From Somniosus microcephalus (lineage: Eukaryota), in contig CM126214.1 in NCBI GenBank assembly GCA_052327205.1, forward strand, positions 29,202,001 to 29,266,000: a stretch of DNA of 64,000 nucleotides, given 5' to 3'. The position numbers and the translations under genes were made by a program. This document shows, piece after piece, positions 1,531 to 48,925 of this stretch (position 1 is the first letter of the stretch; every line of letters begins with the position of its first letter). The notes beneath the pieces are model-generated. The model saw nothing but the letters and a program-made list of their open reading frames with translations. It was not told the DNA's origin and did not search any database.

Positions 1531-3720
1531 ACATTGGGAGAAGGAGAGAAGATGCTACATAATGTTGTTCTTCACACACTTGCTGCTGGAAAGTAGCGCC
1601 TCACTGCAAGTTGTGAAGAAGTTGAACGCAATCTTTTTGTGTTCTCTTCACCGCATCCCCTTTTTTTGGATTTTTTTTTTTTTTTTTACTGAATTTGCCT
1701 TCTATATCCCAGTTGACATGTGTGGCTGTACATATGCGAAGCCTAATTTTGAAGAGCAGTAAATGTTGATTACTCTTCTAGCTAAATTAACATCACTTTC
1801 ATCACACCTCAAACAATTTATAAAACCTGTGAAATTCCAAGAGTAACATCAGGAAAGAAATGACTGCATGATAATTTGTTAGTCCATATTATTGGGCTGC
1901 ATTCGGCCTCCATGCTTTTGAAGGTTGCCCAAAGGTTAACCTGGAGTCCTTGGTCCTCTTAAACATGACATCTTTGCTTAATTACTATGTCATTTAGTGT
2001 TTCTGTTGCACCTACTTAGAGGTGTCTTGGGTTATAGGGTCTGGAGAATATTTCCTATCCATCTTGCCCTCCACCTTGCTTCTGTGCTCTTCTTATCCCC
2101 TCTCCAGCCCTCCAAATTAAGTGCATGCTATGTATAGACATCTTGGCATACTCGTGCAGTTTAACATTTCCTTTGCAGTTCACTATAAACTTGGATTTGG
2201 GAGTGTTTGCATACAGCCAGCTTTTGCTCTTAGTCATGTTCTTTTGTCTGACTTCTGTAACAAATGTTTTCTGCTCTCCTGTTCTTAGCTTGGATGGTCC
2301 CAAGCCATGGTCACTCACTGGTTCCATTCTGACCTCGTACTTGCTGCTTGGCAGTGTTCAAAGCAGGAAATTGATACAAAATGTATGAATTATTCGATCT
2401 GACATGTCTGGCAGCTCTGATTTTATTGCTGATACTATAACCGTTCCAAGTTCTGATTTACCTGGGGTACTGGCTCTCTAAAATGTTAGGTTTCTACAAC
2501 TAACAAATTTACCGGACTTCTGTCCTAACCAGACCCTGTTTAAATTATAAAAGCATGCCTCAAGTTTCTTCTAGCTACCCCGAGCATTTAAAGGTGAGAT
2601 ATATAATTCCTAGTTGGCCTCACTTTGCACACCAGGCAAATAGCAGGCAGCTATTACAAAATATAGTTAGTAGATAATACAAATTGGCATAGTGTGTCAG
2701 GATGGTAGTTGCAAATAATCAAGGAAAGATAGCAAGGGGGTAAAAGTGAGAAAGGGAACATGGACGCGAGAAACAGAGCAATGTTGAAAGAAAAATCCAG
2801 CAAAGTCAAGTTTAAGAAACGAATAGGGTTAAGAAATTAAGAAAAATGAGTAGACTAGCACCCCCTGTGAAGTGTTGATGCAGATTAAGGAAATACTTGA
2901 TAGATTTATAAAGTTAGGTTGAGCTGTTGGAAATTTTGGGCTTTGAGTTGCTGGTTAGTTTTAGCTATCGCAATGAAAGGACCAATTCTGGCAGCTAAAA
3001 ATCCATTTTGAAGGGCTCGTAATAAGTGCAGAAAAGCCAAATCTGACAATAATTGGGCGCATCAGGATTTGGACATAAGCACTTCATAATTAAGAGCAGC
3101 TTTTTAAAAATAAAAATAAATTCTGTAAGTAAATTGCCTTTACTTTTGGGAGAATTTGAATCTGGCAAATGCTACTGATTTCATACTACCTTATTTTCAG
3201 TTTACATTTATTCTGGATCGATTCCAACCCTTGCAAGAGAATCTAAACAGTTACGGAAATGAATTGAGCAATTGATACAGTAGCTGCTCTTTCTCGTAAA
3301 TTTATAAAGACGTCGTTATGTGTGTGAGACTTTAGTATGTACATAGCAACTTCTTAGGGTTATATAATCTCCTGTACCTATCTCTTTTAGCAGTTTGCTC
3401 TGGGTGTGACAGTTTATTGCTTCAAAGGTTAAAAGGCAGTATATCCTTTTGTTGGCTTCCTTGGTTATATCTATTTACCACATCTGTTTGCAGTACTCTG
3501 GCATCTCACTCCACCAAAGTTAGCGAATTCAGAAATACAAACTGGTTTATTAAAACAAATTTGAGCACCTGATGAAGTTTTAAATTTTAAGCTACAAAAA
3601 AGGTGCATTGTATTACATAGGTTCGATAGCATTTATATCTTTATGCGCCTACAAAAGGATTACGGCTTCTTTAAAATTGCCATCCCTAACTAACACCTGT
3701 TCGCACTGTGAACCCTGCAG

Positions 3721-3944
3721 TACTGATGAAGGCTTTACAGGTGAAGAAAAAGAGATGAAGGACCGTGAAAGGCGAATGGCAAATAATGTCAGGGAGCGAA
3801 TTCGCATCAGAGACATTAATGAGGCTTTCAAAGAGTTGGGCCGCATGTGTCAGATGCACTTAAAAACTGATAAAGCTCAAACCAAACTGATCATCCTGCA
3901 GCAGGCCGTCCAGGTCATTCTCGGCCTTGAACAGCAAGTACGAG
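3721..3944 (+). CDS. TCF3: TCF3/E2A mutually exclusive bHLH exon, E47 isoform
   Basis: Translates (S)[74 protein letters not shown], with E47-diagnostic STDE and [12 protein letters not shown]. Acceptor CAG at 3718-3720, donor GT at 3945; 224 nt, same phases as the E12 exon. Confidence 0.95.
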
Positions 3945-5178
3945 GTAGTGTACAGTAACTAACGTTGTGCTGAGAGCAAACACTGACTGTTCCTGCCATT
4001 TTAAATGTGTTGTACTGATTACCACCAAGAACATTTAGACCAGTTGGAACTAGGGTAACCTCAGTGTTGAAAATGTATCTGTGAATTAACTTTAATCAAC
4101 TTTGACTTTTTGTAGTACACTTTTTTTTAGAAAATTCTTTATTACAAGTTCATTATAATTTCATGAACACTGGTAAGTCTGGAATTGTAGAAATTTGTAC
4201 ATTAGCACTTTTTAAATGAAATGGCACATTGTTTCTTAGTTGTGAAGTGAGTTTGCTAAAACCTGTTGCGTTGTAAATCTCATTTTGATCACTTAGCCGT
4301 CATGCAGCCAAAATGCTTGACGGTAACAAATGAGACTTTCTTTTAATTTGGGAAAAGGTGGTGAAGGGCCAAGGTCTAAAATGCAAGACGCCACCAAGAT
4401 TGAAAAAAAAGTAGGCGAGAAAACGAGGTAAATATGGAAAGTAGTGGTTAGATAATGCCAAGCTTGGATTTTTTTAAAGCTGAAGACTGAGGAAGATGAA
4501 GCGTTCCTGGGAAAGAATGTGTTAGAGCAGATGAGTCTCGATTTCAACACCGTGAGGGTGCAGGACAAAGGACTTATGTATGTGCAGTCCCAAAATTGTT
4601 TATGTTCTTGATGAATCACTTGCACACACACAATCTAAATGCTCTCCTCTTCTTCCCTTACCCAAAAAGTAAATCAAATGCATTGTTGTGTTGGCATGGT
4701 TTCTCTACCTGACTTGAAATTGTTTGAATTTTGGGTGGAGGAAGGGTGAGACAGTGGTTTGTAGTTGAAAGGATTCAAGACCTGGCCAGGAGCATTTCCC
4801 CACTACTCCTCCTCCTGAAAGTGGTAATTTATGGTGGCAGGAGTGCCAGCAGTCTTCTAGTATTTCATCCAAGTGGCCATTGTCTTGTGTGTGTGTGAGC
4901 CTGAACTGTGGCCAAATTCAATCTTGCCTTCATCTGACCTCTGCACAGACTTCCAGCAGGAGTTGCAGGATACCCTGCCATGATACAACATCATGTGGTA
5001 TATTTAGCTATAGAGTCAACAAGGCAGCTCTTCTGCGTTCCAACAAAACTGAAAGGAAGACCAACCAGATTGTACTAACCAGTTGGAAACCAAGAGTACA
5101 GTTTTACAGAACAGGTGTTTCAAAAGTTTGATGCAGGAAATATTTGATTCTTGGGGCATTCAGGCTAAGTTAAGAGAG

Positions 5179-19600: not shown

Positions 19601-20575
19601 CTTAAGACAATGTAACAGGCCAGAACTTGTGGAAAATGAATTTTAGGACATATGCTAGAAGAACTTCTGTGACAGATGTGAGGTGTGTCCTGATTCAGAT
19701 TTTTTTAATGTATTATTTTTTTATTGTGTGCTTTATTCTGTAATTATATGAAATACATGATTTTTTTCTGAGCTGACTGTTAGGGGGGGAAAAGAAGCTT
19801 TTATTTTTTTCTCAGGCAGCAGCTGAGAACTGAGGCGTGTTGTCTCAAAGCAAGCTGGATTGTTTAATAAATCAGATGAGGGAAGCTCACACGTTTCGTA
19901 TTGAGGGGCATTAGCCTTTCGTGTGTAACATGCTACGTGTCGCTAGTTATTAAGATGGAATATATGCCTGATACCTCTTTTGATTTATAGTTTTGATTAA
20001 TTATGGAAGTACCCTTTTTTTAAATCTCATTTTGTGTCAGCTTCACTTCAAAGGAGAGAGAGAGAGAGAGAGACTAGCAGTTCAGGCTCTCCAGATCCCT
20101 TCTCATAATGTCACTATATGGGCCTGTGTAAAAGGTCCAAATTACAAAAGATACTATTTTGAAGTACAGATGAGAAATAAAGCATTCTCTTACTGCTTTA
20201 ATGGAATTGATGGCAGGAGTACTGTTCTGTAGTTACCAGTATCCAACTTTGATCCATTTTTTGTGGGCAGGCATGATGATTATAACTTGCTATTTAAATG
20301 GCCAAACAAAGATAAGTAGATGATCTGGGGTATACCTATTTCCTCAGATAGGATTTTCAGTGCTTATGTCCTATTGGGCATATTTTGTTCCTGTTTGGGT
20401 TCTAATGCCATGGAGTTTTTGATAGCTGATCTTGGACTTTAGATGACTTTTAATAAAATATGATTAACTCTACTGTATCTACAGATCTATACTTCATGGC
20501 TGCTGTTCGAGAGGAGGAATGCTGGAATTGGACCTGATGTAAACAACAAATTTGCCTTTTCCATGAGTCCTTGGA

Positions 20576-20920
20576 GCCTTCTGGGACTAGGGACAGGGTC
20601 ACTGGCAAGGCTTGGAAGCTAAGCAGAGCCAGGCCTGGTTAGTACCTGGAGGGGTGACCATCAGGGAAGACCAGGTGCAGAAGGTCACGGAAGGAGCCCC
20701 AAGGAGGGGCGGTTGGTGAGAAGGTCACGGGAGGAGCGGCTGGTGAGCAGGCCCGGGCGGTGGGCTGAAGATTGTCGGACAGGAGGAATGGTGGAAATGG
20801 AATGGCGGCGCACCGACGCAGCGGCTTTGCTTCTCCCAGTCATGGGAGCTTGCAAGATCACATTTCGTTGTTCATGTACTTGTGCAATGACAATAAAGTT
20901 GAATTATTATTATTATTATT
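20576..20920 (+). mobile_element. 5S rRNA-derived SINE-like element (SINE3 class), copy 1
   Basis: 20611-20685 aligns without gaps to the 3' part of 5S rRNA (internal control region). Followed by a GC-rich body and tail ...TGACAATAAAGTTGAATT(ATT)n. Confidence 0.8.
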
Positions 20921-25499: not shown

Positions 25500-26763
25500 G
25501 TTCCCAAAGACCGATTGCTTCCACCTCTAATATCACCTGCCTGTGCCCCACCTCTAATATCACCTGCCTGTGCCCCAACCTCTAATATCACCTGCCTGTG
25601 CCCCAACCTCTAATATCACCTGCCTGTGCCCCAACCTCTAATATCACCTGCCTGTGCCCAACCTCTAATATCACCTGCCTGTGCCCCACCTCTAATATCA
25701 CCTGCCTGTGCCCCACCTCTAATATCATCTGCCTGTGCCCCACCTCTAATATCACCTGCCTGTGCCCCACCTCTAATATCACCTGCCTGTGCCCCACCTC
25801 TAAATCACCTGCCTGTGCCCCACCTCTAATATCACCTGCCTGTGCCCCAACCTCTAATATCACCTGCCTGTGCCCCAACCTCTAATATCACCTGCCTGTG
25901 CCCCACCTCTAATATCATCTGCCTGTGCCCCACCTCTAATATCACCTGCCTGTGCCCCACCTCTAATATCACCTGCCTGTGCCCCACCTCTAAATCACCT
26001 GCCTGTGCCCCACCTCTAATATCACCTGCCTGTGCCCCAACCTCTAATATCACCTGCCTGTGCCCCAACCTCTAATATCACCTGCCTGTGCCCCAACCTC
26101 TAATATCACCTGCCTGTGCCCCACCTCTAATATCACCTGCCTGTGCCCCACCTCTAATATCACCTGCCTGTGCCCCACCTCTAATATCATCTGCCTGTGC
26201 CCCAACCTCAGCCCACCTGGTACTGAAACCCTCATCCATGCTTTTGTCTCCTTGAGACCTGACTCTTCAGTGCCATCCTGCACCTTCAATAAACTTCAAC
26301 TCAAACCTCTGCTGCCCGTATCCGATCCTGCACCAAGTTCTGCTCCCCCATCACCTTGTCCTCCCGATCCTCCCAACACCGCAAATTAAAAATAGCAATT
26401 TAGTATTTAAATTCCTTCATGGCCTTGGCCGTGCTCCTCCCTATCGCTGTAAACTCCTCCAACTCCACCCCACCCCCCTCCAAACTATCCATTTCTTTGG
26501 ACTCTTTTGCACCACTTGCCCCCCCTGGGCTCCGTAATTGGCGATCACTGCCTAAGCTCCACAGTTCCCTCCTTATACCAATCTGCTTCTCCACATTCCC
26601 CTCCTTTAAGATACTTCTTAAAACCTATCTTAATAACCAGGCTTTTGTGCCCCTCCTAATATCGCCTCCTTTGGTTCTGTTGTCTTTTTCTGGGGCTACC
26701 TCTCTGAAGCATCTTGGGATGTTTTTCGACATTACAGGTGCTGTTTAGATGCAAGTTGTTGTT
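25500..26763 (+). mobile_element. L2 LINE 3' fragment containing the minisatellite
   Basis: ETLIHAFVS remnant; 3' end gctgtttagatgcaagttgttgttg. Confidence 0.75.
25522..26208 (+). repeat. 27/28-bp minisatellite, about 25 units
   Basis: Tandem CACCTCTAATATCACCTGCCTGTGCCC with few variants. Confidence 0.97.
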
Positions 26764-34357: not shown

Positions 34358-34741
34358 ATAATAATAATTCAACTTTATTGTCATTGTACAATGCACAAGT
34401 ACATGAACAACGAAATGTGATCTTGCAAGCTCCCATGAGTCCAGTACAAATAACATTAACATTAAACGTAAATAGCACCGTCCTGGGAGAAGCAAAGCCG
34501 CTGCGTCTGTGCGCGCCACCATTCCTCCTGTCCGACAATCTTCAGCCCAACGCCCGGGCCTGCTCACCAGCCGCCCCTCCCGGGGCTCCTTCCGTGACCA
34601 CCTCACCAACCGCCCCTCCTCGGGGCTCCTTCCGTGACCTTCTGCACCTGGTCTTCCCTAATGGTCACCCCTCCAGGTACTAACCAGGCCTGGCTCTGCT
34701 TAGCTTCCAAGCCTTGCTAGTGACCCTGTCCCTAGTCCCAG
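34358..34741 (-). mobile_element. 5S rRNA-derived SINE-like element (SINE3 class), copy 2
   Basis: Near-identical reverse complement of 20581-20920 apart from block indels; 5S-like part at 34637-34711. Confidence 0.8.
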
Positions 34742-37678
34742 GTAAGACCTTTGCTTGCTACGAGACTTGGCATGGGGGAGGGGGGGGAGACACTGGCATA
34801 AAAAGATCTGAGGCACCAGAACTGAATTTTTTTTTTTAAGTAAGTGACTATACTGTATAATTTATCAAGTTAATGCTACAGATTTTACTCTCTCTGAATC
34901 CGTACTGATTCAATTTATAATTTATGAGGTAGAATTTCCGCAGGGTTCCATGATCACCAGCCACGACTTTGGTGGAAGATCAGCGGAAATCTGGGAGAAA
35001 TGGCCGTTTGCCTCATTTCTCCGGGATTTCCGTTGCAGTTGCATTGGATGATCAGGAGATTGCCCACAGAAATGACTAGTGTCTATTTTGTAAATGGGAT
35101 AGAACGTTCTACAATTTGAGCAATACAATATTCTAGTTCATTGGAGCTTTGCTGGGGGATGGGGAGCACATGCAAGTTCATCAAGAAATTCAAGTTTCTG
35201 TTGCACGCATTCCAGCAGCTAAATTAGAGCGTTACCAGTAGAGGGCAGACTGCTGACCTGCTCCTCAACTTGTTGGCTGCAAGACACATCACCCTGGCAA
35301 TTTTACATATTGCTATGTTGACCCATTTTTCGTCTTTTAAAAACTTTTATTTTTACAGCACTTTATCAGTCTCGGAAACACCCCATTGCACTTCATGCAC
35401 AATGGTTGTTTGAAATGCAGTCACATGTCAACAATGTGGCAACCAGTTTTGTGGACAAAACAGCAAAGAATGACCCGTTGATATTTTTTGGGGTGGTGTT
35501 AAGGAAAGAATTGTTAACCAAAGCAGCAGGAGAACGTCCTGCTCTTTAGATAGTGAGATAGGACCTCTAACACTGCAGCGCACCTTCAGCACTATTGCAC
35601 GAAGTATCAAAATAATTTTGTGTCCTGAAATAGGGCTTGAATACTCAACCTTCTGACTCAAGAATGCTATAAATGAGCCAAGCTGATCCTGTGATTACAA
35701 CAAATGATTTCCTATGATAAAGATCATGTCCTTGACTTTCAAATTCTGAATGCACCATAAAAAAGCAATGCAACATGCTTAATTGTGGAAGGGGAATTTG
35801 GCAAATTTTGAGTTTCCACTGCACATCTAATTATAATGAGTCACCATTTCTAATCCCTACATTGTAGCCTCAACAGGTCTTAAATACAATAGCCACCAAT
35901 TAGGAGTATGCCGTTTCTCGATTTGCAGTTGAAAAGAGTAGGAGAGAAGACGAGGTAAATGAAGCAGTAAGGATAAAGTGACACCAAATTTAAGAAGAAG
36001 GTACGGTGTTCTACTGTTTCCAGTTCCTTGGGAAGAATGAGTTGAACTAAGATGATGTGAGGAGTCTGGCTATAAGCAGTGAAAATACAAGAAGAAAAGT
36101 GAGTATGCTGCATTTTAGGATTGGTTAGGAATCCTCAAAAATTACAATGTGAGGTAAAAGTGCATCTGGGGATGAAAATGGGAAGACAATTGTGATCCAG
36201 GCTCAAAGGTATTATGCCTAAAATGTACACGTGCAGTCAGAATTGGAACTTTTGTTTCTTACTCTATTGTTTTGTGTACAAGATCATTTTTAAAAACTGG
36301 TGAAAAGCAAAATTGACTGATTTATTGAAAGATTGTATTTGATCCTATCTCCACAAAATCTCAAATTGTACTACTCCCTGATAATTGATCCATAAAATCT
36401 GATGACTGGTATGTAGTTGCCTCACAACATGTTTCTTCGGATACAACCAAAAACCACAGCGTATTAAGCGAACTGTATGCTATAACTAGAGTCCCCTTGT
36501 AAAATGGTTCCTTTGTTTTTCAAATAGTTCTCTTCCTATTTTCTGAACCCTTGCAGCCCATCTGTTTTAGTTTTTAAAAAAGATATGAGAATGAAGAAAA
36601 TCAGCTACAACTATCTTTTGAAGACTTTAGTTATTAATAGCATTTTTTTCTGTGTCCTCATTCTGCCTCTAGTCTTCTGAAGCACACTGGGCTCCAGCTA
36701 GCAACTTGTTAGAATAATCTCATCATAGCCTGTTTAAAAAATAAACATCGTGTTGCATACTGAGAATTTTAATAATTCTTGACTATTGTCACTTTGCTGT
36801 ATGTTCACTAAACATATTGGGAGAGATGAGGGAAGAATCCTTTAAGTTGTGACCATGTTCAAATACACTTTGCATTTGGAATGGCAAACATTTCTTCCAT
36901 ATAGGGAATTAAAAGATGGAGGAAACTTTACCTGAGGAAAGTATTTTGTGTATTTCCAGAGGAGGTAGGGGAATACCACATTTCTCAAAGCCCTGCCCAC
37001 TGCCATTGTTCATGGAAGTGGTGAAGTTTTTTCAATGTAAATAAAATTAAGTAAAGTCTTGGCCTTCCTTCAATTTTCTGCCATAGTTAGATTGAAGCTG
37101 ACTAGAGAGTGTAGTGAATGAAAATTGAAAAAGTAACTGGGGGTAGGCAGAACAAAACCAGGATATAAAGTGTTGTTCCTTGAATTCTATTCAATTCTCT
37201 TTGGGGAAAATACCATCTGCTTATTTTGTATGAATACTCATCCATATTTTAATGTTTTTTGTGCCGTTTGTTCTTGGCTCATTAGTTAATGGGATACTGG
37301 AGCAGTAGAAGCTGCTGTATACTGATTTGAGGAACAACAATGGGATCTTGCTGAGATGCACCATAAGCTTTGTAGTAAATTGTATGGAATGTAATAACTG
37401 GGAGAACTGAATAGCAGTCATATGAACTAAAGTAAGCATTTTGCTGGTACAATGGTAGGGTCAAATCTGTATAGAAAATCTTGCATTTAGTGTGTGCCCA
37501 TTACAGTTCAGAGTATAACTAGCATTAGAAAAACAAGAAGACAATCAATTTACTGCTAGTTTTTCGACCTTGGGATTTACAAATGACTGACAATCTACAA
37601 AAAACTGTTACCTATGAATGACCTCCGGATATGCCTATTTACCGCAGCAGAATAATACATAGCGTTAGATTATATAAT

Positions 37679-41339: not shown

Positions 41340-42010
41340 GGGAAAGCACGGTTTCCTCTCCGTGTGCGTGGCTGACGACGGGAGTGAGTCATTGTGTGCA
41401 CAGCGAGTGGGTTGCACTTGCAGTGAGAGCAATAGTCGGGCAGCAGCAGCAGGGGCCGCTGCGCTGGCACTTTTTCTTTTGCCGTGCGCGGAGTGAGGCG
41501 GGCGGCGTGGTGCGCGGAGGAGTGAGGCGGCTGATTGTGAGCGGAGCGCGGGGCAGTTGGACGGGCGCTGGAGAGAAAAGGAATAAACGGCCGGTGACCC
41601 GGGTACAAGCTGACAGTCTCCCTCCCTCACCACCTCCTTCAAAGGGTTTTCCACCACATAAATCAGCAATCCTGGAGATGGAAAGGAAGCGTTTCGAGTG
41701 CTCCGCGCTCCCCTCCGGCTGGAAACGGGAAGAAGTGACTCGAAAGTCGGGCCTGTCGGCGGGCAAGAGCGACGTGTATTATTATAGGTGAGTGAGTGAG
41801 TGAATGACTGGCCGGGTGGGGAGAGACCGAGGCCTCAGTTAAAAGACAGCCTTGGAACCAAGAGTGGCTTCGGGGTAGGATGGTGGCCGCCGACCCCCAC
41901 CACCAACCGAGCCTGTAGTACCGGGGATGTGAATCCTTGCACTCGGCCTTGTGCACTTTTATCCGCTCTCTCCTCCCCGGTGAGCGGGGGTGCAAGGATT
42001 GCAGCAGCTG
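41340..42010 (+). promoter_or_regulatory. CpG island/promoter of MBD3
   Basis: GC- and CpG-rich stretch (including GGCGGGCGG) around coding exon 1 in an otherwise AT-rich, CpG-depleted context. Confidence 0.7.
41678..41787 (+). CDS. MBD3: MBD3 coding exon 1 (N-half of MBD domain)
   Basis: MERKRFECSALPSGWKREEVTRKSGLSAGKSDVYYY(S); good Kozak context gagATGg; donor GTGAGT at 41788; 110 nt. Confidence 0.93.
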
Positions 42011-45012: not shown

Positions 45013-48000
45013 GGGGCCGGAATTTGTGGTCAGCTTTAACTTTATCGACCTTAATTTGACTGTAGCGCTGTCAAAAGGGGATCCCTAGCGTACAGCAGCA
45101 GTGATGCCATCAAGCTGTCTAAGCAGCCAGTCACATTGAAGAATTCTCAGTTAGCAAACCAAGAGATAAAAAGCACTGATTCAATTCACTTTTTAAAAAT
45201 TTTACAGAGGGCGAAATAAAGATTGGGACATACACATGGGGTTAAGGTGAAGCTGAAATATCAAACTTTTAAAATAAAATTTAAAAATATTTTACATTTT
45301 TATCATGGAGAAATTTGACATGCCACAAATATAAGAACATAAGAAATAGGAGCAGGCCAATCGGCCCCTCGAGCCTGCTCCGCCATTCAATAAGATCATG
45401 GCTGATCTGATCCTAACCGCCAATCCACTATCACAGAACCATCTCCTGAAACTAACAGAATTAGACACACGAAATAGGAGCAGGATCAGGCTACACGGCC
45501 CCTGGGCCCGCTCCGCTACCCACAGGGCCATGACCGATCCAAACCTAGACTCATGTCCAAATTCCTGCCCGTTCCACGTAACCCTTAATTCCCTTTACTT
45601 CTAGGAAACTGTCTATTTCTGTTTCAAATTTATGTAATGATGTAGCTTCTACAGCTTTTTGGGGCAGCATATTCCATGGACCTACCACCCTCTGAGTGAA
45701 GTAGTTCCTCCTCATCTCAGTTTTGAAAGAGCGGCCCCTTATTCTAAGACTATGCCCCCTAGTTCTAGTTTCACCCATCATCGGGAACATCTTCCCCGCA
45801 TCCACCCGATCCAACCCCTTCACAATCTTATATGTTTCAATAAGATCGCCTCTCATTCTTCTGAACTCCAATGAGTAGAGTCCCAATCTACTCAACCTCT
45901 CCTCATATGTCCATCCCCTCATCCCCGGGATTAACCGAGTGAACCTTCTTTGTACTGACTCGAGAGCAAGTATGTCCTTTCTTAAGTATGGACACCAAAA
46001 CTGTACGCTGTATTCCAGGTGCGGTCTCACCAATACCTTGTACAACTGAAGCAATACCTCCCTATTTTTATATTCTATCCCCCTAGCAATGAAAGCCAAC
46101 ATTCCATTGGCCTTCTTAATCACTTGCTGCACCTGCATACTAACCTTTTGAGTTTCGTGCACCAGGACCCCCAGATCCCTTTGTACTTCAGTACTTTCCA
46201 GTTTCTTGCCATTAAGATAATAACTTGCTCTACGATTTTTCCTGCCAAAGTGCATAACCTCACACTTTCCAGTATTGTATTCCATCTGCCAAATCTCTGT
46301 CCACTTACTTAGCCTGTCTATGTCCCCTTGCAGGTTTTTTATGTCCTCCTCACTCACTACTTTCCCTCCCATCTTAGTATCATCTGCAAACTTTGATATG
46401 TTACACTCGGTCCCCTCCTCCAAATCGTTAATATAGATTGTAAAGAGTTGGGGACCCAGCACTGACCCCTGCGGAACACCACTAGTTACTGATTGCCAGT
46501 CTGAGAATGAACCATTTATCCCAACTCTCTGCCTTCTGTTAGATAGCCAATCCTCTATCCATGCCAGAATATTGCCCCCAATCCCGTGATTTTTTATCTT
46601 AAGCAATAATCTTTTGTGTGGCACCTTGTCAAATGCCTTTTGGAAGTCTAAATACACTACGTCCACTGGTTCCCCTTTATCCACCCTATACGTTACTTCC
46701 TCAAAGAATTCCAGCAAATTTGTCAAACATGACTTCCCCCTTCATAAAACCATGCTGACTTTGTCCTATTAAATTATGATTATCCAAATGTCCTGTTACT
46801 GTCTCCTTAATAATGGACTCCAAAATTTTACCCACCACAGATGTTAGGCTAACCGGTCTATAGTTTCCAGCCTTCTGTCTACTGCCCTTTTTAAATAAGG
46901 GTGTTACATTAGCAGTTTTCCAGTCTGCCGGGACCTTTGCCGAGTCCAGGGAGTTTTGGAAAATTATTACCAATGCATCCACAATCCCTACCGCCACTTC
47001 CCTCAAGACCCTAGGATGTAAGCCATCAGGTCCAGGTGATTTATCTGCCTTGAGTCCCATTATTTTACCGAGTACCACTATTTTACCGAGTACCACTTCC
47101 TTAGTGATTTTGATCGTGTTTAGCTCCTCCCCCCCCTTTAGCCCCCTGTTTGTCCAGTGTTGGGATATTCTTAGTGTCTTCTACTGTAAAGACTGATGTA
47201 AAATATTCATTCAGTGTTTTTGCCATCTCCATAATTCCCACCATTAATTTCCCGGTCTCATCCTCTAAGGGACCAACATTTACTTTAGCCACCCTTTTTC
47301 TTTTTATATAACTATAAAAACTCTTACTATCTGTTTTTATATTTTTTGCTAATTTACTTTCATAATCTATCTTCCCTTTCTTAATCAATCTTTTTGTTAT
47401 TTTTTGCTGTCTTTTAAAGTTTTCCCAATCCTCTATCCTCCCACTAGATTTGGCTACCTTATATGCCCTTGTTTTTAGTCGAATACTACCCTTAATTTCT
47501 TTACTTAGCCACGGATGGCTGTCTTTTCTTTTACACCCTTTTCTTCTCAGTGGAATATATATTTTTTGGAAGTTGTAAAATAACTCCTTAAATGTACACC
47601 ACTGATCATGTATCGTCTTACCCTTTAATCTATTTTCCCAATCCACTCTACTCCATTCCGCTCTCATACCTTCATAGTCTCCTTTATTCAAGCTTAGCAC
47701 GCTTGTTTGAGATCCAACCTTCTCACCCTCTAATTGAATATGGAATTCAATCATGTTATGGTCACTCATTCCAAGGGGATCCTTTACTAGGACATTTTTA
47801 ATTAATCCCCTCTCGTTACACAGGACCAGATCTAAGGTTGCTTGCCCACTGGTCGGTTCAGTTACATACTTCTCAAGAAACCCATCCCTAATACACTCAA
47901 TGAACTCCTCCTCAAGGCAGCCCTGCCCAATTTGATTTGTCCAATTAATATGATAGTTAAAATCCCCCATAATTATAGATGTTCCCTTATTACAAGCCTC

Positions 48001-48925
48001 AACTATTTCCTGATTGATACTCCGTCCAACAGAGTTGCCACTGTTCGGAGGCCTATAGACTATGCCCACTAGTGTTTTTTTCCCCTTATTATTCCTTACC
48101 TCCACCCAAACTGTTTCATTATCCTGATCTTTTGACCCAATATCATTTCTCTGTATTACAGTGATTCCTTCCTTTATTAACATAGCCACCCCACCTCCCC
48201 TTCCTGCCTGTCCTTCCTGATCGTTAAATAACCTGGTATGTTTAATTCCCAGGCATTGTCACCCTGCAGCCATGTTTCTGTAATGGCCACGAGATCATAC
48301 CCATATGTAGTTATTTGTGCCATTAACTCGTCTATTTTGTTACGAATGCTACGTGCATTCAGATAGAGAACTTTCAAAGATGTTTTGTGACACTTAGTTC
48401 CTGCTTTTGCCCTTTTTATTACTTTACCTTTTACTCCATACCCTCTGCCCCTTCCTGACACGCTCTGGTTTTTAATTTCCCCACTGCTACCTAAGTCTAT
48501 GACCTTCTCTGTTGTCATTTTTATTATTTGCTCTCTAGGAACCTCCCCCCCCCACTAGTTAGTTTAAAGCCCTCCCTAAAATTAGTTTTTCAGGGCAAGA
48601 ATGGTTGTTCAGCAGTCAATATACCGTTAAAACCCCAGTTACCCCTTTCCATCAAGTCTTAACTTTTTCTGGTTTTATGAGATGTTTAACAGCAATATTA
48701 GATCGGAAAAGCTTGTTTCCATCAGTTCAACTGATTTCACAGATTGCTGACTATGGGGAGTTCCACAGCGCAGCCTGTGGAGGAGCAGGGAATGACTGAC
48801 AGCAACTTCAGGATTTTCACGTTTATCTGCGCATGCGCTAAATCCTAAAGTTAGTCCGTTTCAGCGGGGTAATGACGGCGAACACTGACAGTTTCACTGT
48901 CATTACCACTGCAAAATCCGTGTCC
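45013..48925. mobile_element. MITE of the same terminal type split by the young CR1
   Basis: Left end GGGCCGGAATTTGTGG, right end GCAAAATCCGTGTCC; halves at 45013-45329 and 48576-48925. Confidence 0.5.
45330..48575 (-). mobile_element. Young CR1-clade LINE, 5'-truncated near the end of ORF1; ORF2 (APE+RT) split by a few frameshifts
   Basis: Consecutive minus-strand ORFs 48177-48518 (YLNARSIRNK..AITETWL), 47101-48189 (YRPP, MGDFN, SDH), 46701-47096 (SPGPDG, NYRPVSLTS) and 45551-46726 (YLDFQKAFDKV, GVPQGSVLGP, FADD). TTCTTATGTTCTTAT tail at about 45330; RALN* ORF1-like end at about 48560-48573. Confidence 0.95.

Follow-up and report, generated by a model that had tools for sequence, protein, structure and literature searches.

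What is the 5S rRNA-like sequence at 20576-20920 of a 64,000-nucleotide stretch of the Somniosus microcephalus genome (the whole stretch is called the window here), and by what route did it spread? The element is a real, young and non-coding SINE3, one of thousands of copies, and a second copy lies in the same window on the other strand. The parts of the two copies are as follows.

20576-20578, + strand: GCC, host flank outside the element (present in contigs of organism D that have the orthologous site empty; runs X11 and X14).
20581-20599, + strand: remainder of the 5′ 12-bp hairpin (consensus nt 10-28), with its first 9 nt missing (hairpin z -3.5; pair probabilities 0.67-1.0).
20600-20610, + strand: non-5S linker, predicted to form a second local hairpin with the box A region (fold prediction).
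20611-20684, + strand: head derived from 5S rRNA nt 44-117 (64/74 to host 5S gene L122; Rfam).
20617-20631, + strand: box A, within the 5S head.
20634-20639, + strand: IE, within the 5S head.
20647-20664, + strand: box C, within the 5S head.
20674-20761, + strand: tandem 40-41-nt unit that begins in the end of the 5S part (full copy at 20674-20714, shortened copy at 20715-20741, then a partial third).
20762-20800, + strand: spacer with short AATGG repeats at its end (unmatched in the LINE and in the 5S array unit).
20801-20837, + strand: extreme 5′ end of the partner LINE, comprising the start codon and first 12 codons with a 2-nt deletion (score 47-50 against a shuffle maximum of 32).
20826-20856, + strand: predicted stem of 11 bp in two helices, 20826-20838 with 20843-20856 (pair probabilities 0.63-0.98 in the window copy).
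20840-20902, + strand: 3′ tail common to the SINE and its LINE, very probably of Rex1 type, at about 80-84% identity (sequence comparison).
20903-20920, + strand: (ATT)6 terminal repeat (sequence; many LINE copies carry the same repeat).
34358-34742, - strand: second SINE copy, long form, first 8 nt missing (extra 44 nt between the LINE 5′ and 3′ pieces).

An earlier reading of the letters alone (the sequence-only reading) had correctly picked out the tandem unit of about 40 nt, of which the related SINE of organism D has one, and the (ATT)n ending; it overlooked the extreme 5′ end of the partner LINE at 20801-20837. Both copies are flanked by an E-protein-type bHLH exon (3584-3955, + strand) and the start of an MBD gene (about 41680-41788, + strand), which we take from synteny to be probably TCF3 and MBD3. 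The window also contains a near-perfect minisatellite array (25521-26209) and a young CR1 copy whose endonuclease and RT frames are long (45554-48554, - strand). Among named sequences, those closest to the CR1 RT come from sharks and rays (56-71% identity), with turtles and birds at about 50%, which makes a cartilaginous fish the likely host.

The head aligns without gaps to nt 44-117 of host 5S rRNA, at 64/74 and 62/74 positions for two host variants, and the former value lies above the SINE3 threshold, 60% identity or more with 5S rRNA across a minimum of 60 nt. The ungapped match proposed for 20611-20685 therefore holds over 20611-20684, with 10-12 mismatches in place of the estimated 15 or so. 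With promoter boxes that we place by assuming their positions in Xenopus 5S, box A is identical at 14/15 positions (13/15 against the other host variant), IE at 6/6 and box C at 13/18; this bears out the proposal that the match covers all three, as does the 13/43 identity upstream of 20611 for the proposal that the roughly 35 nt before the match are not recognizably 5S. The Rfam 5S model scores 20576-20686 at 31.9 bits, below its gathering score of 38, and has a second weak match at 34646-34689, which is the minus-strand SINE copy. Three majority differences that separate organism D's relative from the host SINE fall in the box C region and give the host 5S base.

Exact 24-mers from the SINE tail and head occur 2,370 and 1,976 times, respectively, in the 6.45-Gb genome, and the reversed controls not at all. 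All 30 tail-selected loci (the first 30 of the 2,370 matches) are SINE copies, 22 of the long form (402 nt) and 8 of the short form (342 nt); all 30 head-selected loci are SINE copies with a body, and this body, together with common diagnostic changes, rules against 5S pseudogenes. Because the exact tail word is present in 20 of the 30 head-selected loci, the 2,370 tail matches translate into about 3,500 copies; the tail-selected copies diverge from their consensus by a mean of 1.4%. The young, multicopy, 5S-headed SINE of the sequence-only reading is thus upheld, at a copy number far above two. No SINE or LINE match turned up in a random genome sample of 14 x 10 kb, which is too small for copy counts. 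With lengths of 342 and 402 nt, copies in unrelated flanks on many contigs and 2,370 exact tail words, the family falls within the SINEBase definition used here, a short (<1 kb) interspersed repeat with at least 100 copies (available text of PMC3531059). Sequencing runs of organisms A, B and C contain near-identical sequence, and those of D to G a related family; among the indexed sequencing runs, no RNA data matching the SINE were listed.

The copies integrate with little trace of target duplication. Direct repeats of at least 6 nt flank 8/90 copies, against 9/887 control pairs, and repeats of at least 8 nt flank only 2/90, one of them within a tandem repeat, so target-site duplications are mostly absent. 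Most tail-selected copies reach the head (23/30), and the other 7 are cut at nt 179-283. Many of the 90 copies end within the first 14 nt, that is, inside the 5′ hairpin. A short repeated TTCCT stands at the 5′ junction of 5/61 copies (L005, L016, L022, L090 and L228), and the base before the SINE start is A in 16 of 27 full-length copies.

Where does the element begin? The sequence-only reading took GCCTTCTG (20576-20583) as the 5′ end, paired it with CAGAAGGT (20678-20685) as a helix I kept by double compensatory change, and derived the element from a variant 5S rRNA gene. The pairing does form when the single window copy is folded together with its flank, which also yields the 31.9 bits on the 5S model, but the first 20 nt of the full-length consensus have a probability of at most 0.003 of pairing with CAGAAGGT. 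GCCTTCTG stands at the 5′ end of 1/90 copies, namely the window copy, and is missing from the consensus, an outcome that the sequence-only reading had itself named as counting against it. Full-length copies instead start with GCCCTGTTCC (22/90), and consensus nt 1-28 fold as a 12-bp hairpin (z -3.5). The window copy begins at consensus position 10 (20581), and two samples of organism D from a single study (runs X11 and X14) yield insertion-free contigs that match 20150-20578 and then again from 20961, with 46 letters separating the two aligned parts; because these contigs align through 20578, the GCC at 20576-20578 is flank. GCCTTCTG is therefore not the element's 5′ end, and the proposed compensatory change is partly host flank. 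The SINE at a second locus, L004, is likewise absent in organism D. Some 190 nt upstream of the SINE, the sequences of organisms B and D are longer by 22-23 bases at 20387, which indicates a small deletion in the window's genome.

Two candidate explanations were rejected on these data. Helix I covariation fails on the local 12-bp hairpin that starts full-length copies and on the GCC in the orthologous empty site. Origin from a variant 5S gene, which we now regard as extremely improbable, fails on the SINE body in 30/30 head-selected loci and on the search for a head followed by a T4 terminator, a pattern that gave 3 matches at 2 places in the genome, neither of them 5S-like; the SINE head itself has neither helix I nor a T-run terminator after nt 119. 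Host 5S genes form a tandem array on G000:C19, and the 47 that were scored are ordinary tandem copies. This array (G000:C19:22.6-23.9 Mb; L111-L140) has a 2.5-kb unit and two gene variants that differ at 4 positions, found at 10 and 19 of 29 loci.

A diverged 5′ end is not unusual for a SINE3, as the 5S matches of CoeSINE5 and SINE-1_Pmo begin only at nt 18 and nt 29 (PMC5786205, supplement as available). Both the hairpin (consensus nt 1-19; window 20581-20590) and the 5′ end of host 5S have GCC at the start and ACTAG near nt 15. This weakly hints that the hairpin might have been remodelled from 5S by fold-back copying.

The body of the SINE holds both ends of one LINE. The first 39 (short form) to 60 (long form) nucleotides of the LINE lie there in frame with the first LINE codons, and the match scores well above shuffled sequence (maxima 31-35) in the long form (47/60; 68 against a maximum of 32) and the short form (58-61 against 35). 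The AAGATGG start of the LINE is kept in organism D's relative, and 27 reads of run X23 that align to the SINE continue into LINE sequence at the 5′ piece. A natural LINE deletion copy (L178; 1/30 LINE loci) joins the 5′ 368 nt to the 3′ 54 nt. The donor, with no 5′ UTR and with PF09004 and Rex1 primer-site motifs, is neither RTE nor Vingi. In the accessible text of Kojima 2018 (PMC5786205), LINE 5′ pieces in SINEs come only from RTE and Vingi, and two-ended derivatives are given only for RTE, Ingi, Vingi and R2, with Rex1 unmentioned. By sequence, then, this SINE likely extends the two-ended design to a Rex1-type donor of the CR1 group.

The partner LINE was found through PF09004, a domain that we take as a Rex1 marker: the genome search gave 13,752 candidates, of which 150 were scored. 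About 80 nt of tail are common to the SINE and 28 of the 30 PF09004 loci fetched, at 78-87% identity among the matches listed, in agreement with the proposal of a tail shared with a Rex1-type LINE. Of six longer stretches, three contain a full-length LINE of 3.1 kb with a single 981-aa ORF (RVT_1, E 1e-29; PF09004; endonuclease, E 1.5e-4, below the Pfam cut-off), and its 5′ 24-mer occurs 310 times in the genome. Across 30 loci conservation starts 3 nt before the ATG, so the LINE has neither ORF1 nor a 5′ UTR. An AP endonuclease upstream of the RT in one ORF (here a weak match), no ORF1, and a conserved 3′ UTR followed by oligonucleotide repeats are all stated features of Rex1 (PMC6274825 and PMC13343379, as accessible), a clade that the same sources describe as abundant in rays.

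The diagnostic Rex1 primers RTX1-F1/R1 give a product of 573-575 bp (PMC3728117, accessible part). Read as protein motifs, their sites in L092 lie 575 bp apart, with 6/7 and 4/7 residues identical, and the spacing is 572 or 575 in 86 of 120 LINE homologs; as DNA, the Rex1 and Rex3 primers match the LINE no better than shuffles (RTX1 13/21 and 13/24), and the top 120 homologs include no named Rex1 sequence. From these sequence features we place the LINE, with strong confidence, as Rex1-type. Its RT region (L092:2627-5569) is 62-74% identical to teleost proteins, with no cartilaginous fish named in the top 120, which accords with reported Rex1 transfer between rays and teleosts (PMC13343379, accessible part).

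Two further features of the LINE start were observed. Several copies have an A-run just upstream of the start AA(A/G)ATGGCGGCG, a motif that overlaps the start codon and is kept in distant relatives (L171-L200; L234, L239, L243 and L244). It resembles a YY1 site, judged by the consensus that we assume for that factor. The ORF then opens with a hydrophobic stretch that resembles a membrane or signal segment, and a YSRQ-type motif comes next (L092:2627-2750; L239, L242 and L243); both are present in distant relatives too.

Why would a SINE keep both ends of its partner? At +33 the LINE reads CTCCCGAGA, whose reverse complement opens the LINE's own tail, and the two ends pair in the minimum-energy fold of 3/3 full-length host copies. 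We collected 80 LINE relatives from metagenome contigs, 32 of them near full length and 21 of these with an AATAAA tail; dropping 3 without a 5′ end and 2 duplicates left 16, which with the host LINE make 17 families at most 72% mutually identical. A motif-blind scan of these gave an own-pair residual of -4.0 kcal/mol (p=1e-5, or 3e-5 without the host), with an internal control at p=0.20; the 5′ window outdid all of a family's own internal windows in only 8/17. A motif-anchored test was made on the 13 families with a conserved start motif, in fixed windows chosen after two earlier pairing analyses had been seen. Here the own tail came first in 12/13 families (permutation p<5e-6; upstream-UTR control p=0.92), and 12/13 beat both shuffles at p<0.05, with paired segments only 39% and 31% alike between families. 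By computed pairing, then, complementarity between the two LINE segments kept by the SINE extends to 12 of 13 divergent Rex1-type families. The pairing is interrupted, and perfect complementary runs outside the host family are short, no longer than in internal controls. A hairpin formed by the tail alone has no support (z -0.6 to 0.3). Both LINE pieces of the SINE are predicted to pair, and the pair may be what the copying enzyme recognizes; for the SINE 5′ piece, however, the LINE tail is a stronger pairing partner (-20) than the SINE tail (-15).

Expression data bear on the SINE only within longer RNAs. In two RNA-seq runs, 557 and 985 reads map to both strands of a full-length copy, and 29 and 34 reads enter it from unrelated upstream sequence, with no pile-up of starts listed at the 5′ end; reads on both strands and from the flanks indicate SINE copies inside longer transcripts, not Pol III activity. 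At L004:1696-1809, reads of run X24 on the 3′ part are biased by strand (about 380 against 18; library orientation not given), perhaps reflecting one host transcript that carries a truncated SINE copy.

The explanation that we consider probable as a whole is a SINE built from a 5S promoter, a hairpin and both LINE ends, likely transcribed by Pol III, likely copied by the LINE enzyme and with ends predicted to pair. Its 5′ end lies 45 nt upstream of box A, the 5S spacing minus 4 nt, and a TFIIIA/TFIIIC-type internal promoter would, with high probability, have Pol III start at the G there. The 5S 5′ domain would have been lost, with local hairpins in its place. Pol III would read through to a T-run in the flank, giving a SINE RNA without T4 before the flank; TTTT is absent from both SINE consensuses, as it is by chance in 16-35% of shuffles, and present in the first 75 nt of 24/30 LINE 5′ ends. 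A Rex1-type APE-RT would then, we are confident, carry out target-primed reverse transcription from the (ATT)n tail with short or no target duplications. More tentatively, at a little short of an even chance, the 5′-3′ stem would be part of what this enzyme recognizes, hence the keeping of both ends. As to origin, an internally deleted LINE would have gained a 5S head, and the short form would have arisen later from the long form by deletion. A broader reading, possible if on balance doubtful, is that Rex1-type LINE RNAs are closed by a conserved, covarying 5′-3′ stem read together with the tail, the SINE being a minimal closed copy and a parasite that needs both ends.

These proposals have to be weighed against other accounts of the same parts. 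The LINE 5′ piece could be a passive relic, its complementarity serving the LINE only (through translation or RNA stability) or favouring internal deletion, with the SINE needing the tail only. We give this a sizeable chance, though one that falls below even. A stem predicted to be weaker in the SINE (-15 kcal/mol) than in the LINE (-24) would fit it, as would sense and antisense pairing that score alike (p=0.5), the 44 nt taken out at the LINE 5′ piece in the change from long to short form, and the abundant relative in organism D, whose form has lost the CTCCC strand (the upper 5′ strand), even if, by eye, the lower TTGC/GCAA helix could remain. It sits less well with the retention of part of the 5′ piece beside the tail in all three master forms, with an 11-bp stem that pairs in both host forms and the window copy and shows one G-C to A-U double change, and with the preference of the SINE tail for the SINE 5′ piece (-15) over that of the LINE (-12.5). 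The immediate partner may also be a different Rex1-type family, closer than L092, L093 and L095, since the LINE tail is only about 83% identical to that of the SINE, whose copies have diverged by 1.4%. Identities of 78-89% over tail and 5′ piece, and the scoring of 150 out of 13,752 PF09004 candidates, leave room for such a family. We nevertheless think it rather unlikely, as none of the 30 loci taken from the 2,370 matches to the SINE-type tail 24-mer is a LINE, and the LINE found has near-intact copies, nearest neighbours at 95-99% identity, the same (ATT)n and 5′-end reads in RNA run X23; published SINE-LINE pairs, moreover, are 69-91% identical (Table 1 of PMC5786205, accessible part).

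The 5S head might itself be a passenger, the SINE spreading by Pol II read-through or from a promoter of the LINE piece. RNA-seq reads do run in from flanks, and type 1 promoters reportedly rely on signals further upstream (PMC3272025, accessible part). Yet full-length copies have one common 5′ end 45 nt upstream of box A in unrelated flanks, 23/30 tail-selected copies reach the head, and between the host and organism D no majority difference is listed in consensus nt 1-74, whereas flanks differ by about 7%; a passenger head is thus very unlikely. We retain the Pol III-driven, two-ended SINE as the preferred reading.

RSg-1, named below, is an element that we assume to belong to the Rex1 clade. 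The salmonid OS-SINE1 shares the 5S head and takes its tail from RSg-1, but it is a DeuSINE with about 70 bp of LINE tail and no LINE 5′ piece mentioned, compared here by description only (PMC3747384 and PMC3272025, as accessible). CoeSINE5, SINE-1_Pmo, HaSE3 and Ped-1 come closest in design, each with a 5S head diverged at its 5′ end, a LINE 5′ piece and a LINE 3′ tail; their bodies, however, derive from RTE, with pieces from the 5′ UTR that are often internal, whereas the present piece is the extreme 5′ end of a Rex1-type (CR1 group) donor and coding, start codon included (PMC5786205, accessible text). A Rex1 tail also ends SINE2-5_NV, paired with Rex1-24_NV, although this sea anemone element has a tRNA head and, as listed, the tail only; zebrafish SINE3-1 and AmnSINE1 have the 5S-derived Pol III head but a Deu body and CR1-type tails (PMC3747384, accessible text). 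The shark SINEs HE1, SacSINE1 and CmiSINEs, from the same host group, are all tRNA-headed with HER1, CR1 or L2 tails (PMC3747384 and PMC5499810, as accessible). A shark SINE3 or a two-ended Rex1 SINE was not encountered in the literature searched, with Repbase, Dfam, the SINEBase family table and subscription papers outside its scope. Within the same literature, again excluding subscription papers, pairing of the Rex1 5′ end with the tail, predicted here for the partner LINE, was not reported, and the accessible descriptions of Rex1 LINEs do not mention it (PMC6274825 and PMC13343379).

Young SINE copies that are absent at orthologous sites in a relative could serve as phylogenetic markers, and a 342-nt SINE with near-intact partner ORFs makes a stem-breaking and rescue assay straightforward. 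Kojima 2018 noted that only few LINE clades yield two-ended derivatives, 'for unknown reasons', and a Rex1-type donor with complementary ends offers a testable reason for this bias (PMC5786205, accessible text). Should the stem prove to be a recognition element, such LINEs could no longer be viewed as recognized through their 3′ tail alone, and this may bear on the biology of an ORF1-less and often horizontally transferred clade.
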